A stretch of DNA of 64,000 nucleotides from a virus. Its lineage: Duplodnaviria; Heunggongvirae; Uroviricota; Caudoviricetes. The translations under genes were made by a program, and so were the position numbers. Below are positions 3,857 through 54,892 of this stretch, piece by piece. How positions within the stretch are numbered: the stretch's first letter is position 1; every line of letters begins with the position of its first letter. The notes beneath the pieces were generated by a model. It saw nothing but the letters and a program-made list of their open reading frames with translations, had not been told where the DNA came from and made no database searches. The stretch lies in the IMG/VR virus record IMGVR_UViG_3300025364_000002; one strand, given 5' to 3'.

Positions 3857-4125
3857 TATGCAAGTGTCTCAACTCTCTCATTAATGCTCAAAACTGCAAC
3901 TTCACAAGTTCCTTCACCAAAAACCTTTTCCCAGGATTTTTTTAGATCACGGGCTCTCTTTTTCACTTCCTTGCTGTCAGGGTCATCTGAATATAATACA
4001 AAGACACGCTTGGGGTCAAATACATATTCTACAGCAGGCGAGTAATTGTCAACAGATTCTCCGTTAACAGTAATCATTGATTCTGTGGTCATGCTAGGCA
4101 CTTGTGCTGAATTGTTTGAGTTCAT
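3856..4125 (-). CDS. hypothetical protein
   Basis: 89-aa ORF; start uncertain because it overlaps the GIY-YIG end. Confidence 0.55.
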   Translation of the reverse strand: MNSNNSAQVPSMTTESMITVNGESVDNYSPAVEYVFDPKRVFVLYSDDPDSKEVKKRARDLKKSWEKVFGEGTCEVAVLSINERVETLA

Positions 4126-4846
4126 TTCTTCTCTCCATTTTGTTTAAAATATAAGGTGTCCAACCTCTATATGTGTTACGTTTATTATTTGCCACTTGAT
4201 TCATCTTTGAAAGATGTAAGTTATTTTCTCTGCAAAATTTCGATAAATTTGTAATTGAAACTATTTCTCCATCAGGAGAAACAATCTTATAAGATTTTTG
4301 ATTTGATTTGATTGCTGCCAAGTTGGTAACTTTAGATGGTCTTTTGCCCCTATTTGCATTTTTTATTTTTTTTACATGTTCTTTTGATAGACTTCTTCCG
4401 GATAGTGCTTTAGATATATTGTTTTTATGTTGTTCTGATAGTAATCGACCTTTGAGTGAAGAAGAAATTTTTCTTTTAGTTTCCTCTGATACAACAGTTT
4501 TTCTTGAATTAAAACTTCCTTCACGTGAAATGGCTTTTTGTCGTAAATTATAGCATTTTTTTCCGGAATCAAAAAATTTATCTAAATATCGCTGTTCTAT
4601 TTCCAATCTCTTGTTCAAATCATTCACTTCTTGAAGAACTTCGAAAATAAAAAATTCTGATCCACATTTAGAAAAATCAGATTGAAGAAATCGATTGCCA
4701 TGCTTCCCCAAAAGAAGAGCATGTTTATGTTTATAGGCTCTTGTTTTAAAAGATTTACAAGAACCATAATAAACTCTATGGTTCTTACGGTTAAAAATTC
4801 TATAAACCCCACCTTTATTGGAACAACCGTTATATATTAACTTCAT
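4094..4846 (-). mobile_element. free-standing GIY-YIG homing endonuclease with NUMOD3-like repeats
   Basis: GGVYRIFN...VYYGS motif; SEETKRKISSSLKG and SEQHKNNIS repeats. Confidence 0.88.
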
Positions 4847-51230: not shown

Positions 51231-51536
51231 TCACTTAGACTGAAGTACCAATCCTCGGTCGAAACCGCCTCGAAGTTGTAATTTTTTAATTCTAGTTTGC
51301 TCTATTTCAACAGAATTGTGTCCAAGAGCCTTAGCCAAGGAGTAAACGACTTCTATCACATCAGCCATTTCTTCTAAACTCGGTTCAGCAACAAGTTCAG
51401 AAGCTTCCTCAATTACCTTGTCAAGTAAGAGAGGGATTTTTTCATTGTCATGACACGAGATAATTTCAAGGTTATCAGAGAGACCGCCATTATCATCAAT
51501 AATTTTAGGTATCTTATCTCGTATTAACTTTCTCAT
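51231..51536 (-). CDS. MazG-like nucleotide pyrophosphohydrolase
   Basis: KLIRDKIP, KVIEEASE, EEMADVIEV, RGGFD. Confidence 0.85.
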   Translation of the reverse strand: MRKLIRDKIPKIIDDNGGLSDNLEIISCHDNEKIPLLLDKVIEEASELVAEPSLEEMADVIEVVYSLAKALGHNSVEIEQTRIKKLQLRGGFDRGLVLQSK

Positions 51537-51545
51537 GTTATGAGT

Positions 51546-51636
51546 TGGCGGAAGGCAGAGGACTTGAACCCCAACGGTTGTTGACCGTCCATCCGCTTTC
51601 GAGACGGCGGCGATCACCCGGATCGCTTTACCTTCC
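51546..51636 (-). tRNA. tRNA-Ser(CGA)
   Basis: Loop CTCGAAA, long variable arm, CCA. Confidence 0.9.
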
Positions 51637-51653
51637 AAAGGTTTGTGTAATTA

Positions 51654-52142: not shown

Positions 52143-53318
52143 TCACTTTACAAGTTTTGTAAACAGCTCAGTCTCACGTCGTTCAATTTCTTGTCCGATT
52201 TCTCGTCCCTTTAAACCCTGAGCCATCAACTCTTGTCCACTCACGGATGGTTCGTATTTAATAAATGCATCTACCAAATTCATGTCCGGCTCACCACTAA
52301 GTTGAGCAAATTCCTTCAAGTCCTCAGGAGAAAGTCGTGTCGGCTTCCACAATTTTTTCAAATGATAAGCATTCTCGGGAGAAAGGTTTTGAAAAAGATT
52401 AAGAAAAGCAATTTGCCTAGTTTCAACTACACTGTATTTTAAGTTGTTTAACTTTTGAGACAAAACTTTAGGATTGTTATCTCGTGTAAGAAGAGCAAGT
52501 TGCACTGGGATGTTCTTTGTTTCTTCATACCACGTGTTTAGCTTTAACCCAGGTAAAATCTTTTCCCATAAATTGAAAGAGTCATAAAGACGATGTAAGG
52601 CCCTGACGGATTGGGCACTCTTAATGCTTTTCAAGAATTCATCTCTGATTCTTTCAGGCGACACACCCTCTAAGGAATTATTTGCCCTAATGGCGTCTTC
52701 GGTCGGTTTATCAAGCCCAGCACCCATACGAGCTGCAAATCTAATAGCTCGCAAAATTCTCAGTCTGTCCTCATCAAATCTTTCTGAGGGATCTCCAACA
52801 GCTCTAACCACACCTTTTTCTAGATCTTCAAGACCGCCTACCAAGTCCACAACTTCTTGACTGTCGATGTCATAAAAAAGTGCGTTAATTGTAAGATCAC
52901 GACGTTTCACATCATTTTCAATAGTAGTAAACTCAACTGCATCGGGTCGTCGACCCACCAAAGACTTAAATTCTCGATATTCTTCTGGAAAAAGTTGTGC
53001 GGCTTTATTTTTCCAATTAGCCGACTCTGTCAACTTGTTTGTGGTTGTTGGGGTAAATGTGATAAAGATACCATCTGTAGGATCACCCTCCACGACACTG
53101 ATACTATCAGTGCTGTACTCATCGAAAATTTTATAGTGTTCATCCCACCAATCTTCTTCGGGTGTACCTGCTTCATATCGACATCCGAGTGTATGAGTTT
53201 CAATGAACCAGCCATTTACAATAACAGTATCACCACAAGTTCTTGCAGTCTTCAATTTAGCCAGAAGGTCATTTCCAGCCTTTTGAACGGTTGCAGGTAA
53301 ATCTTCATACTTGGTCAT
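52143..53318 (-). CDS. CCA-adding tRNA nucleotidyltransferase, C-terminal part (motifs B-E) with ~120-aa extra N-terminus
   Basis: GRRPD, DVKRRDLTINAL, GGLEDL, RFDEDRLRILRAIRF, VSPERIRDEF. Confidence 0.85.
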   Translation of the reverse strand: MTKYEDLPATVQKAGNDLLAKLKTARTCGDTVIVNGWFIETHTLGCRYEAGTPEEDWWDEHYKIFDEYSTDSISVVEGDPTDGIFITFTPTTTNKLTESANWKNKAAQLFPEEYREFKSLVGRRPDAVEFTTIENDVKRRDLTINALFYDIDSQEVVDLVGGLEDLEKGVVRAVGDPSERFDEDRLRILRAIRFAARMGAGLDKPTEDAIRANNSLEGVSPERIRDEFLKSIKSAQSVRALHRLYDSFNLWEKILPGLKLNTWYEETKNIPVQLALLTRDNNPKVLSQKLNNLKYSVVETRQIAFLNLFQNLSPENAYHLKKLWKPTRLSPEDLKEFAQLSGEPDMNLVDAFIKYEPSVSGQELMAQGLKGREIGQEIERRETELFTKLVK

Positions 53319-54039
53319 CAACATATCTCCACATAAAACCACCAGCTTGTTTCCTGTACTTTTTGTTTCTGGCAGCACAGCTAATGTTTCTAATTCCCAA
53401 GTCTTTTTGAGCTTTATCAACACTTTCCCAAATTTGGATCATTTCACCGTCTAAAGTCATTTGCATTACTTTTTTCTTGTTCCAAGCTGATTTTCCTCTA
53501 CGAGCTTTAGAAATCTTCTGCTTTTGTGCTTCTGTACAAGGTTTTCCAAGTCTTCTGGTGTTACCTATAAGTGACTTGGAAATATTTTTCTTGTGTACAG
53601 AAGTTAATTTTCGACCCTTATGCTGTCTAGCAACTTGTGCTATTTTTTGCTTCGCCTTCTCACTGTGCTTATAACCGTGAGATCCAACCTCTCCTCCAGA
53701 AGTGACATTTGTTAAATCACAACCTTTGTCTTTGAAATATTGAATCCAATACCGCTCTCGTTCTGTCAACAAACTTTCTTCACATTTTTCAATGGCAATT
53801 ATCCTCAGTTTGGAGAGCAATCCTTTTCTCTCCAATAATCGCAACCAATTATTCTTATGCGAGTTATTCTTGTTCCTTCGATGCTTATGCTTAGAGAGTC
53901 TAACGTTTAGCTTTGATACAGTTTTACCAACATATCTGACCTCATTAGTCATTGGGCATACGAGCGAGTAGACGCAGCCTTTTCTTCCAGTTTTCTGGCT
54001 GTTTTTCTTGGATGAATTTAACGAAACTTTCATAATCAT
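53305..54039 (-). mobile_element. GIY-YIG homing endonuclease (NUMOD3/NUMOD1) splitting the CCA enzyme gene
   Basis: GCVYSL...VRYVGKT, HSEKAKQKI, KQAGGFMWRY. Confidence 0.9.
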
Positions 54040-54892
54040 CTTTTAAATATGAATCTTCACGGAAAGTTGCTATTTCATATTCATTGCCCTCAGGGGTTAT
54101 AACATTGATAACACCAAATGCCTTCCCAACTTCCATTGTTTTGTACTCTGGGAATTTCCTGATTATTTCAAGAATGCGATTAGGATTAGCATCTGTGGCC
54201 ACATCATAATCCTTAGGTTCTTTACCCAGCAATGCATCCCGTACTGCTCCACCTACAACGTAAAGTTGATGTCCAGCTTTTGAAAAGATTTGTGATAATC
54301 TTTGAATGTCAGCAGGTATTTTCATATTAAAGGGCTTTCGCACTGATTCAACTAAGAAATTGAAATTTTCATTTAAAATTTCATCAATAAGCCATTTAAC
54401 GCTTTCGTTTTTAGCCTCAGTTTCTTGGTTGTCTTTTTTTGGCACCTGATCCAGTGGCGAAGGTTGCTTTTTCTGCAAATATTTTTTAAACTTGCGCTCC
54501 CGTTTTTTGCGAGGTACAGTGTAATGTTTTTTTAACAACTGATCAATGGTAGATTGGTACCAGCGCTTTGCCTGTCCAGCAAGTTTGTTGTCATCTACAA
54601 AATGATCAATATAAAGACGCACTCCGTGCGTATCACCGGATTGACGTGGGTCCATATCTGGATCCATTTTAAGCAAGCCTGACAACTGGTCGAGTTTCTT
54701 GGTTGGAGAGTATCCTCCCCTGACTGATGACACGGAAAACTTAGCAAGTTTAGTCAAATCATCATGAATTTCGGGAAAATTTTTCTTCATGTGATTAACG
54801 TAATCTTGCGATAGCTCCTCACGGTGTTCGAGCATGACTTCATCAAGCACTTCCTCAATCAAATATACAAGGTCTTTCTTTTTCATGGACAT
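53945..54892 (-). CDS. CCA-adding tRNA nucleotidyltransferase, N-terminal part (motif A) with ~170-aa N-terminal extension
   Basis: LYVVGGAVRDALLGKEPKDYDVATDA, EIATFRED. Confidence 0.88.
   Translation of the reverse strand: MSMKKKDLVYLIEEVLDEVMLEHREELSQDYVNHMKKNFPEIHDDLTKLAKFSVSSVRGGYSPTKKLDQLSGLLKMDPDMDPRQSGDTHGVRLYIDHFVDDNKLAGQAKRWYQSTIDQLLKKHYTVPRKKRERKFKKYLQKKQPSPLDQVPKKDNQETEAKNESVKWLIDEILNENFNFLVESVRKPFNMKIPADIQRLSQIFSKAGHQLYVVGGAVRDALLGKEPKDYDVATDANPNRILEIIRKFPEYKTMEVGKAFGVINVITPEGNEYEIATFREDSYLKDDYESFVKFIQEKQPENWKKRLRLLARMPND

Follow-up and report, generated by a model that had tools for sequence, protein, structure and literature searches.

Uncultured phages carry a CCA-adding enzyme gene divided by a mobile endonuclease cassette, probably into the two chains of one enzyme

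The closest described system is the ribonucleotide reductase of phage Aeh1, whose nrdA gene is split in its catalytic core into nrdA-a and nrdA-b by mobE, a free-standing homing endonuclease gene of the HNH type that overlaps the downstream half ('genes in pieces', Crona et al. 2011; PMC3045599). Neither RNA nor protein splicing occurs there, close relatives are uninterrupted and differ only by the insert, and novel tails missing from intact enzymes extend the first fragment at its C-terminus and the second at its N-terminus. These oppositely charged, cassette-derived tails are essential by experiment; they are unnecessary for fragment–fragment binding and are needed only for higher assembly and activity (PMC3045599). 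In T4 topoisomerase (gp39/mobA/gp60), an enzyme subunit is likewise split at a homing endonuclease insertion, and tail-like extensions were noted by Crona et al. (PMC3045599). In the 'fractured genes' of Dassa et al. (2009; PMC2677866), phage-type genes are likewise divided in two around a free-standing endonuclease gene, and the peptide modules at their split ends are split inteins that ligate the halves. For CCA-adding enzymes, loss of the flexible loop converts the enzyme into a CC-adding one, and separate CC-adding and A-adding enzymes are two complete paralogs with partial activities (PMC2910056, PMC7014341). No paper describing a split CCA-adding enzyme was found in the literature.

We analysed a 64,000-nt stretch of DNA from a virus of the Caudoviricetes (IMG/VR record IMGVR_UViG_3300025364_000002), hereafter the window, in which the minus-strand gene of a class II CCA-adding enzyme is interrupted after R278-E-D280 of the BxA motif. 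As in Aeh1 nrdA, the part of an enzyme gene that codes for the catalytic core is interrupted by a free-standing homing endonuclease gene, which overlaps the downstream half; the host gene is that of a CCA-adding enzyme rather than ribonucleotide reductase, and the endonuclease is of the GIY-YIG rather than the HNH type. This huge, tRNA-gene-rich phage encodes the enzyme as two genes because the homing-endonuclease cassette occupies the catalytic loop, and the N-half, the endonuclease and the C-half are three minus-strand ORFs, each in a different frame.

The N-half gene (53945..54892, minus strand, 315 aa) was identified by its ORF call and by Pfam PolyA_pol, with residues 210–288 matching positions 1–77 of the 126 in PF01743 (E = 1e-17; 65 bits against a cutoff of 23). 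An N-terminal extension of ~189 aa, also present in the intact 549-aa relative P0003, precedes the CCA head domain, in which motif A and BxA lie, and a cassette-encoded tail ends the protein. The motif A stretch from 'GGAVRD' to 'KDYD' as well as 'EIATFRED' could be read from the translation, and residues 190–315 had a mean AF2 pLDDT of 87. The C-half ORF runs from an ATG at 53318 to 52143 on the minus strand, its frame being open back to a GTG at 53423, and a GGAG read from the sequence at 53327..53330 (minus strand), 8 nt upstream of the ATG, is its likely ribosome binding site. The enzyme body of the C-half (52143..52955, minus strand) contains what remains of the flexible loop (GRRPD), motif B (RRD) and motif D ('EDRLR'), all read from the translation, together with the neck, body and tail domains. 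It matches PF01743 positions 74–126 (54.7 bits) and PF12627 PolyA_pol_RNAbd (36.8 bits) and is 85% identical to P0003; in the AF2 model of the 391-aa C-half, pLDDT exceeds 85 at residues 210–391.

The Pfam PolyA_pol profile is thus divided between the halves at one point (77/74), and the full set of catalytic motifs is present across the two. The first-pass annotation had assigned motif A and EIATFRED to 53945–54892 and GRRPD, RRD and EDRLR to 52143–53318, an assignment with which the two Pfam halves agree. It had also placed the break in the flexible loop that separates motif A from motif B, which is where it lies: the BxA-to-motif B loop, required for A-addition, is discontinuous, being cut right after R-E-D with GRRPD on the other chain. 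Among the 52 tRNA genes in the window, 34 have no encoded CCA, and a CCA-adding enzyme therefore has work to do. A promoter and terminator scan returned sites no more numerous than in shuffled sequence. The sequencing runs listed as containing this stretch were all DNA, from hypersaline-lake metagenomes that may themselves have supplied the sequence, with none from RNA.

To place the boundaries of the insert, the window was compared by blastn with L087, a syntenic intact locus from which it differs only by a 1097-nt insert (52956..54052, minus strand). Homology stops after the codons 'GAA GAT' and restarts at 'GGT CG', and the cassette replaces 9 nt coding for I-G-K in this closest intact allele. 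Identical junctions were found in a second pair, split L047 and intact L080, so that here, as for Aeh1 nrdA, close relatives are uninterrupted and differ only by the insert. Intact relatives have 15–24 nt between 'FR' and 'GRRPD'. At one end of the cassette lies the N-half tail (53945..54052, minus strand), comprising residues 281–315 (35 aa) and the stop codon; its two predicted helices span positions 98–108 and 113–121 of the AF2 model of N-half residues 190–315, and the final ~30 codons of the tail share their bases with the beginning of the endonuclease gene, which is read in another frame. At the other end is the C-half leader (52956..53033, minus strand), ~26 aa with a helix-Pro-helix arrangement and the pattern W..A..LFP.E[FY]..F, whose helices span residues 102–109 and 111–119 of the C-half model. 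A further likeness to Aeh1 is that both split ends, the C-terminus of one fragment and the N-terminus of the other, bear novel peptides that intact enzymes lack. These peptides look hydrophobic and aromatic here, in contrast to the oppositely charged tails of Aeh1.

Fused in frame to the leader is a cargo domain of ~95 aa (53034..53318, minus strand) with a predicted alpha/beta fold. The first-pass annotation had counted about 120 extra N-terminal residues in the C-half; these are real but do not form one unit, consisting of the unrelated cargo and the leader common to all split alleles. The cargo, which had no match in Pfam, PHROG or the ESM Atlas, has homologs that are stand-alone proteins of 90–117 aa (P0121–P0123), and is attached to the leader in L005 and L007 as well as in the window. 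Its pN/pS of 0.20 against L007, with synonymous sites saturated, indicates purifying selection, and AF2 confidence for it is low (pLDDT 45–80). The gene of one stand-alone homolog lies just upstream of a ribonucleotide reductase small-subunit gene. An internal restart of the C-half at a TTG six codons before the leader Trp was considered and rejected: no ribosome binding site lies ahead of it, and the corresponding codon in L007 is the non-start TTA.

The endonuclease gene (53305..54039, minus strand, 244 aa) was assigned by both Pfam and PHROG to the homing endonucleases; it is a free-standing gene of the GIY-YIG class and I-TevI type, carries NUMOD3 and lies in a frame of its own, and it bears out the earlier reading that a GIY-YIG gene splits the enzyme gene. 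Matches were obtained to PF01541 GIY-YIG (E = 3e-8; 34.1 bits, cutoff 22.6), PF07460 NUMOD3 (E = 1e-6; 28.8 bits, cutoff 20.4) and phrog_314 homing endonuclease (E = 6e-17). The catalytic domain is followed by a NUMOD-type DNA-binding module, an I-TevI-like architecture, and the ORF shares 95 nt with the N-half and 14 nt with the C-half. It is 64% identical to the L007 copy with a pN/pS of 0.28, and judged from its sequence the gene is apparently intact.

Thirteen distinct split loci from uncultured phages have the insertion site, the tail and the leader in common. The tails are homologous in 13/13, with 33–38 aa and then a stop; in 10 of the 13 the first residue of the C-half is a Met that precedes the invariant leader Trp by three positions, and a comparison of start codons showed that an upstream stop usually precedes this Met. 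What lies between tail and leader varies: a GIY-YIG gene of the I-TevI type or the LEM-3 type, a frameshifted gene, a 67-aa remnant, nothing, or extra ORFs. The endonuclease has decayed in L004 and L005 and is absent from L061, and the split has thus outlived endonuclease decay. At least 21 N-half clusters at 50% identity end in the tail among the top 150 library representatives. The distribution is patchy. On a tree of 68 distinct enzyme sequences, 14 of them split, the split state requires 11 changes, and a single clade of split alleles is rejected by the AU test (p = 4e-6). This scatter of split alleles across the enzyme tree implies that tail, endonuclease and leader move jointly as a single cassette; the recurrence of tail and leader with different, decayed or absent endonucleases, and their jumps across the tree, likewise indicate that the peptides travel with it. 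A single-chain enzyme with tail plus leader was found neither among 54 distinct intact sequences from the fetched loci nor among the top 150 library representatives, and a split within a pre-existing loop insertion was rejected on this ground. Aeh1 is a single case, whereas the same tails come back here in dozens of lineages, combined with two types of endonuclease, with a decayed endonuclease or none, and with cargo ORFs.

Both halves are strongly constrained between split lineages in which synonymous sites are saturated. The dN/dS was 0.10–0.29 for the N-core and about 0.1–0.2 for the C-body, indicating purifying selection on each. It was 0.2–0.35 in most pairs for the tail, while values for the leader (~24 codons) were noisy, some pairs being near 1. 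By these sequence comparisons both peptides are under purifying selection, with the leader estimate noisy. Codon periodicity was weak in the tail (0.51/0.43/0.55) and leader (0.47/0.40/0.51) relative to the body (0.27/0.13/0.60). Aromatic and hydrophobic positions are kept in tail and leader across very divergent loci, whether these carry either of two endonuclease types or none. In the window's subgroup the second tail helix and the GIY motif of the endonuclease share bases, and the other frame may therefore account for part of the conservation of that helix. Structure prediction models tail and leader each as paired amphipathic helices. A complex prediction with the tail (A2, 43 aa) and leader (A3, 37 aa) as peptides alone, without the enzyme domains, scored 0.24 against a mark of 0.32, a value that speaks neither for nor against binding.

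One continuous enzyme would still result if the insert were removed from the RNA as a group I or other self-splicing intron, or were bypassed by the ribosome. GIY-YIG genes of the I-TevI type are classically intron-borne, inserts of the shortest split loci are intron-sized (310–361 nt), and divergent introns can escape Rfam. The T4 td/I-TevI group I intron indeed has an endonuclease of the same family and the same homing logic into a conserved catalytic site of a phage gene; unlike that system, no ribozyme core was detected here and the endonuclease flanks are conserved as protein. Rfam searches, run at thresholds of E up to 10 for the window and of up to 5 or 1 for nine further split loci, matched no intron family and yielded tRNAs and chance matches only. 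Overlapping ORFs span the entire insert in the window, and the insert ends are conserved as peptides of regular length, with tails of 33–38 codons and then a stop, a Met-x-x-Trp start and dN/dS below 0.35 for most tail pairs. The two shortest inserts folded no better than shuffled sequence (z = −1.7 and −0.5), single-sequence folding being uninformative alone. For a bypass, the gaps of 300–1470 nt far exceed the 50-nt translational bypass of T4 gene 60, a mechanism with no counterpart here. We regard either route to a continuous protein as highly improbable. The earlier view that the locus has neither room nor signal for a group I intron is upheld by the lack of Rfam intron matches and by the purifying selection on its protein-coding flanks. 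Nor is protein splicing expected. A split intein would have an N-intein starting with Cys or Ser and a C-intein ending in His-Asn before a Cys, Ser or Thr, with a total of about 130 aa or more. In contrast to the modules of the 'fractured genes', tail and leader total ~60 aa in most loci; the leader is followed by Gly (by Lys in L037), and the +1 Cys/Ser/Thr and the terminal His-Asn are both missing. An intein proper, which the first-pass annotation had also dismissed, was rejected for its stop codons, its three reading frames and the absence of terminal Cys/Ser/Thr or His-Asn. As in Aeh1, where neither kind of splicing occurs, no intron or intein signal was detected.

The cassette might instead have inactivated the enzyme, leaving the halves as decaying pseudogenes and the phage tRNAs to be matured by the host enzyme. 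The interruption does fall inside the catalytic loop, and hosts normally possess a CCA-adding enzyme of their own. A dead gene is nevertheless very unlikely given the open frames and full motifs of both halves, the strong purifying selection on them between split lineages, the persistence of the split in L004 and L005, with their decayed endonuclease, and in L061, which has none, and the existence of at least 21 N-half clusters at 50% identity. A two-chain enzyme whose tail and leader do not serve assembly is a less remote prospect, though still an unlikely one. The peptides could be neutral read-through and restart sequence retained for translation or to control the endonuclease gene, or could change function, for example by restricting A-addition or recruiting the cargo or a partner. 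In favour of this are the loss of the N-terminal anchor of the loop governing A-addition, the dispensability of the Aeh1 tails for heterodimer formation (PMC3045599), the overlap of the tail with the endonuclease start in the window's subgroup, and, in three loci (the window, L007 and L005), a cargo joined to the leader. Against it, both peptides keep their aromatic and hydrophobic positions whatever the endonuclease, or with none, each is predicted to form paired amphipathic helices, and neither is present in any intact enzyme examined.

The sequence evidence therefore leads us to favour, as the probable reading, a two-chain enzyme split by a homing cassette in the manner of Aeh1 NrdA-a/mobE/NrdA-b, which the first-pass annotation had rightly named as the precedent. 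Its two-chain interpretation gains support from the conservation of the halves in many split lineages, including those in which the endonuclease has decayed or gone. Of the two systems, only that of Aeh1 has had its function demonstrated experimentally. In this view a class II CCA-adding enzyme gene would have become two cistrons when a mobile cassette homed into the codons of its flexible loop. The cassette would consist of tail-coding DNA with a stop, the free-standing GIY-YIG gene, the cargo, and leader-coding DNA together with a start codon. Translation of the N-half, which holds motif A and BxA, would run on into the two-helix tail encoded by the cassette. The C-half would begin inside the cassette at ATG 53318 and continue through cargo and leader to GRRPD, motifs B to E and the tRNA-binding body. 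We infer that the chains are made separately and reassemble non-covalently into an active head domain; tail and leader probably aid this assembly, as do the tails of Aeh1 NrdA-a and NrdA-b. The endonuclease, for its part, may cut intact alleles of co-infecting phages, whereupon repair would copy the whole cassette including the peptides, and the cassette would thereby bring its own remedy for the split. The loop required for A-addition loses its N-terminal anchor through the split, so that full CCA activity is not a given; the altered specificity raised in the first-pass annotation is speculative, and 'glue' may be the wrong picture because the Aeh1 tails are dispensable for fragment binding. 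More tentatively, and with some doubt, tail and leader may form a portable, self-sufficient heterodimerising module that at least two endonuclease families bring from one allele to another, and one that in this phage also attaches cargo and thereby possibly changes activity or targets, A-addition for example.

Read in this way, the sequences would add to Aeh1 NrdA a second and much more widespread case of an element that fragments an enzyme gene and supplies peptides repairing the damage. That such peptides travel with the cassette, a proposal only in Crona et al. (PMC3045599), follows here directly from comparative data. Dozens of natural variants become available for studying how short helical adaptors reassemble a split catalytic domain, which is relevant to split-protein engineering, and the split loop offers a system for asking whether the cut alters the switch from C-addition to A-addition. 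Paired short 'PolyA_pol' ORFs in huge phages should not be labelled pseudogenes in annotation. If true, the heterodimerising module would give selfish elements a third general means, after introns and inteins, of making their own insertion harmless.

The CCA-adding enzyme gene lies on the minus strand as two halves separated by an endonuclease gene, each of the three ORFs occupying a different frame. The N-half (53945-54892, 315 aa) matches positions 1-77 of the Pfam PolyA_pol head domain; the C-half (52143-53318, 391 aa from its ATG) covers positions 74-126 and the RNA-binding domain. The ORF between them (53305-54039, 244 aa) encodes a GIY-YIG endonuclease with NUMOD3 and shares 95 nt with the N-half and 14 nt with the C-half. 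A GGAG stands 8 nt upstream of the C-half ATG. This division of the head-domain profile agrees with the first-pass annotation, which had described a CCA enzyme gene split by a GIY-YIG gene, and the motifs it named were found in the ORFs to which it had assigned them. At its N-terminus the N-half bears a ~189-aa extension (54326-54892, minus strand) that is also present in the intact enzyme P0003 and matched no family in Pfam or PHROG. N-terminal fusions differ in other lineages, with 212 aa in locus L005 and an N-half of 521 aa in L037.

The insertion boundaries were located by comparison with the closest intact allele, which encodes P0003 (549 aa, 85% identity in the C-half) on the syntenic locus L087. 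The DNA alignment runs to codons E279-D280 and restarts at the Gly codon of GRRPD, so that 1097 nt (52956-54052) stand in place of 9 nt (I-G-K) of L087. A second pair, split L047 and intact L080, has the same junctions. R-E-D at the insertion point is the BxA motif, the N-terminal flank of the flexible loop in CCA-adding enzymes of class II; this places the cassette right where the loop begins. Located between motifs A and B, the loop is required for A-addition, and its deletion is the mark of CC-adding enzymes (PMC2910056).

A protein search retrieved further C-halves whose N-terminus is extended by the same peptide as in the window. Across 80 IMG/VR loci and several contigs, 'FR' and 'GRRPD' stand 15-24 nt apart in intact genes and 325-1471 nt apart in split loci. 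The split loci amount to 13 distinct arrangements after merging of near-duplicate contigs; the enzyme tree, with 68 distinct sequences, includes 14 split ones. In every split locus the N-half continues for 33-38 codons before its stop, a tail absent from all intact genes examined. The tails are homologous and keep an aromatic and hydrophobic pattern. Every split locus also carries a homologous leader before GRRPD (W..A..(L/F)FP.E(F/Y)..F), seen in no intact gene examined. For the window's own peptides AF2 predicts two helices in the tail and a helix-Pro-helix in the leader. The first residue of the C-half is, in 10 of the 13 loci, a Met that precedes the invariant Trp by three residues and in most cases directly follows an in-frame stop. 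When 1.8 billion representatives were searched with a profile, tail-ending N-halves made up at least 21 clusters (50% identity) among the best 150 matches; the longer matches inspected among these were ordinary intact enzymes, and no single chain was seen with both tail and leader.

The interval between tail and leader varies in content. It holds an I-TevI-type GIY-YIG gene in the window, L002, L007, L027, L049 and L052, a LEM-3-type GIY-YIG gene in L006, L036, L037 and L047, a frameshifted endonuclease gene in L005, a 67-aa remnant with a visible GIY motif and NUMOD-like piece in L004, and only about 145 nt of spacer in L061. Unrelated small ORFs (67-130 aa) are additionally present in several split loci. 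Cargo of this kind is joined in frame to the leader in the window (53034-53318, minus strand, about 95 aa), L007 and L005. The window cargo matched no family in Pfam, PHROG or Atlas, and has stand-alone homologs of 90-117 aa; against L007 its pN/pS is 0.20, with synonymous sites saturated. One stand-alone homolog (P0123) lies between an 854-aa gene and the ribonucleotide reductase small-subunit gene, immediately upstream of the latter; in T4-like phages this position is a known hot spot of mobE-type endonucleases (PMC3045599). L005 is a close relative of the window, and its cargo (4001-4510) is a different domain of ~170 aa whose matches to ADP-ribosyltransferase families are weak and fall below threshold (ART-PolyVal, E 0.014; PARP, E 0.059). 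Particular to the window are an apparently intact I-TevI-type endonuclease overlapping both halves and a cargo domain fused to the C-half leader.

On the enzyme-body tree the split state changes 11 times, no better than shuffled labels, with at least seven changes forced by well-supported branches; confining the split alleles to one clade lowers the log-likelihood by 1000 units (AU p = 4e-6). The split alleles are scattered, yet they have homologous tails and leaders. This is most simply explained if tail, endonuclease and leader enter intact alleles together by homing. The endonuclease genes would afterwards be replaced, decay or be lost, and the split enzyme gene would persist.

An alternative is that the insert is an intron removed at the RNA level. 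The first-pass annotation had seen no room for a group I intron, and indeed the window insert is coding throughout and Rfam intron models matched none of ten split loci (the window and nine others). Insert ends behave as peptides, and predicted folding of the two shortest inserts does not surpass that of shuffled sequences. An intein, of which no motifs had been seen at first pass, is ruled out by stop codons, separate frames, small size and missing splice-junction residues.

That the halves are a pseudogene is unlikely because both are under selection and the split persists in loci devoid of an endonuclease. For the N-core, dN/dS between split lineages is 0.10-0.29; over the first 80 C-body codons it is about 0.1-0.2. 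Values for tails are 0.2-0.35 in most pairs and for leaders 0.07-0.16 in the best-aligned pairs, noisy in others; codon periodicity of both peptides is present, if weak. The window endonuclease is 64% identical to the L007 copy (pN/pS 0.28). In the window's subgroup, the tail end and the first ~30 endonuclease codons share bases in two frames (53945-54039, minus strand), the second tail helix being written over the GIY motif; the endonuclease may therefore account for part of the conservation of this helix. L004 (3758-3804), with its endonuclease cut down to the 67-aa remnant, still keeps the overlap conserved. Taken at the sequence level, these comparisons support the earlier reading of a two-chain CCA enzyme.

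The window is a portion of a very large phage genome; the records closest to it in the database come from uncultured 'huge phages', and its terminase-like neighbourhood is also present on related contigs. Metagenomes from hypersaline lakes contain identical DNA and may be where the window comes from. It carries 52 tRNA genes (1265-62982), of which 51 are on the minus strand. According to ARAGORN coordinates, the CCA end is not encoded in 34 tRNA genes, many of which are followed by TAA. This gives a CCA-adding enzyme an obvious job. Clusters of tRNA genes also lie within a few kb of the CCA gene in the split-allele phages L036, L052 and L061. A 135-aa ORF call (51231-51638, minus strand) runs with its 5′ end into the window tRNA-Ser (cga) gene (51546-51636, minus strand); the ORF's real start is probably downstream of the tRNA.

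No publication describing a split CCA-adding enzyme in a phage turned up in our literature search. The closest known case is phage Aeh1, in which nrdA is split by mobE. There, unique tails came with the mobE insertion and are essential for activity, although dispensable for binding between the two NrdA fragments, and similar tails were predicted in further fragmented genes (PMC3045599). The present case extends Aeh1-type fragmentation to a new host gene, the CCA-adding enzyme, and adds comparative evidence that the tails belong to a recurrently homing cassette.
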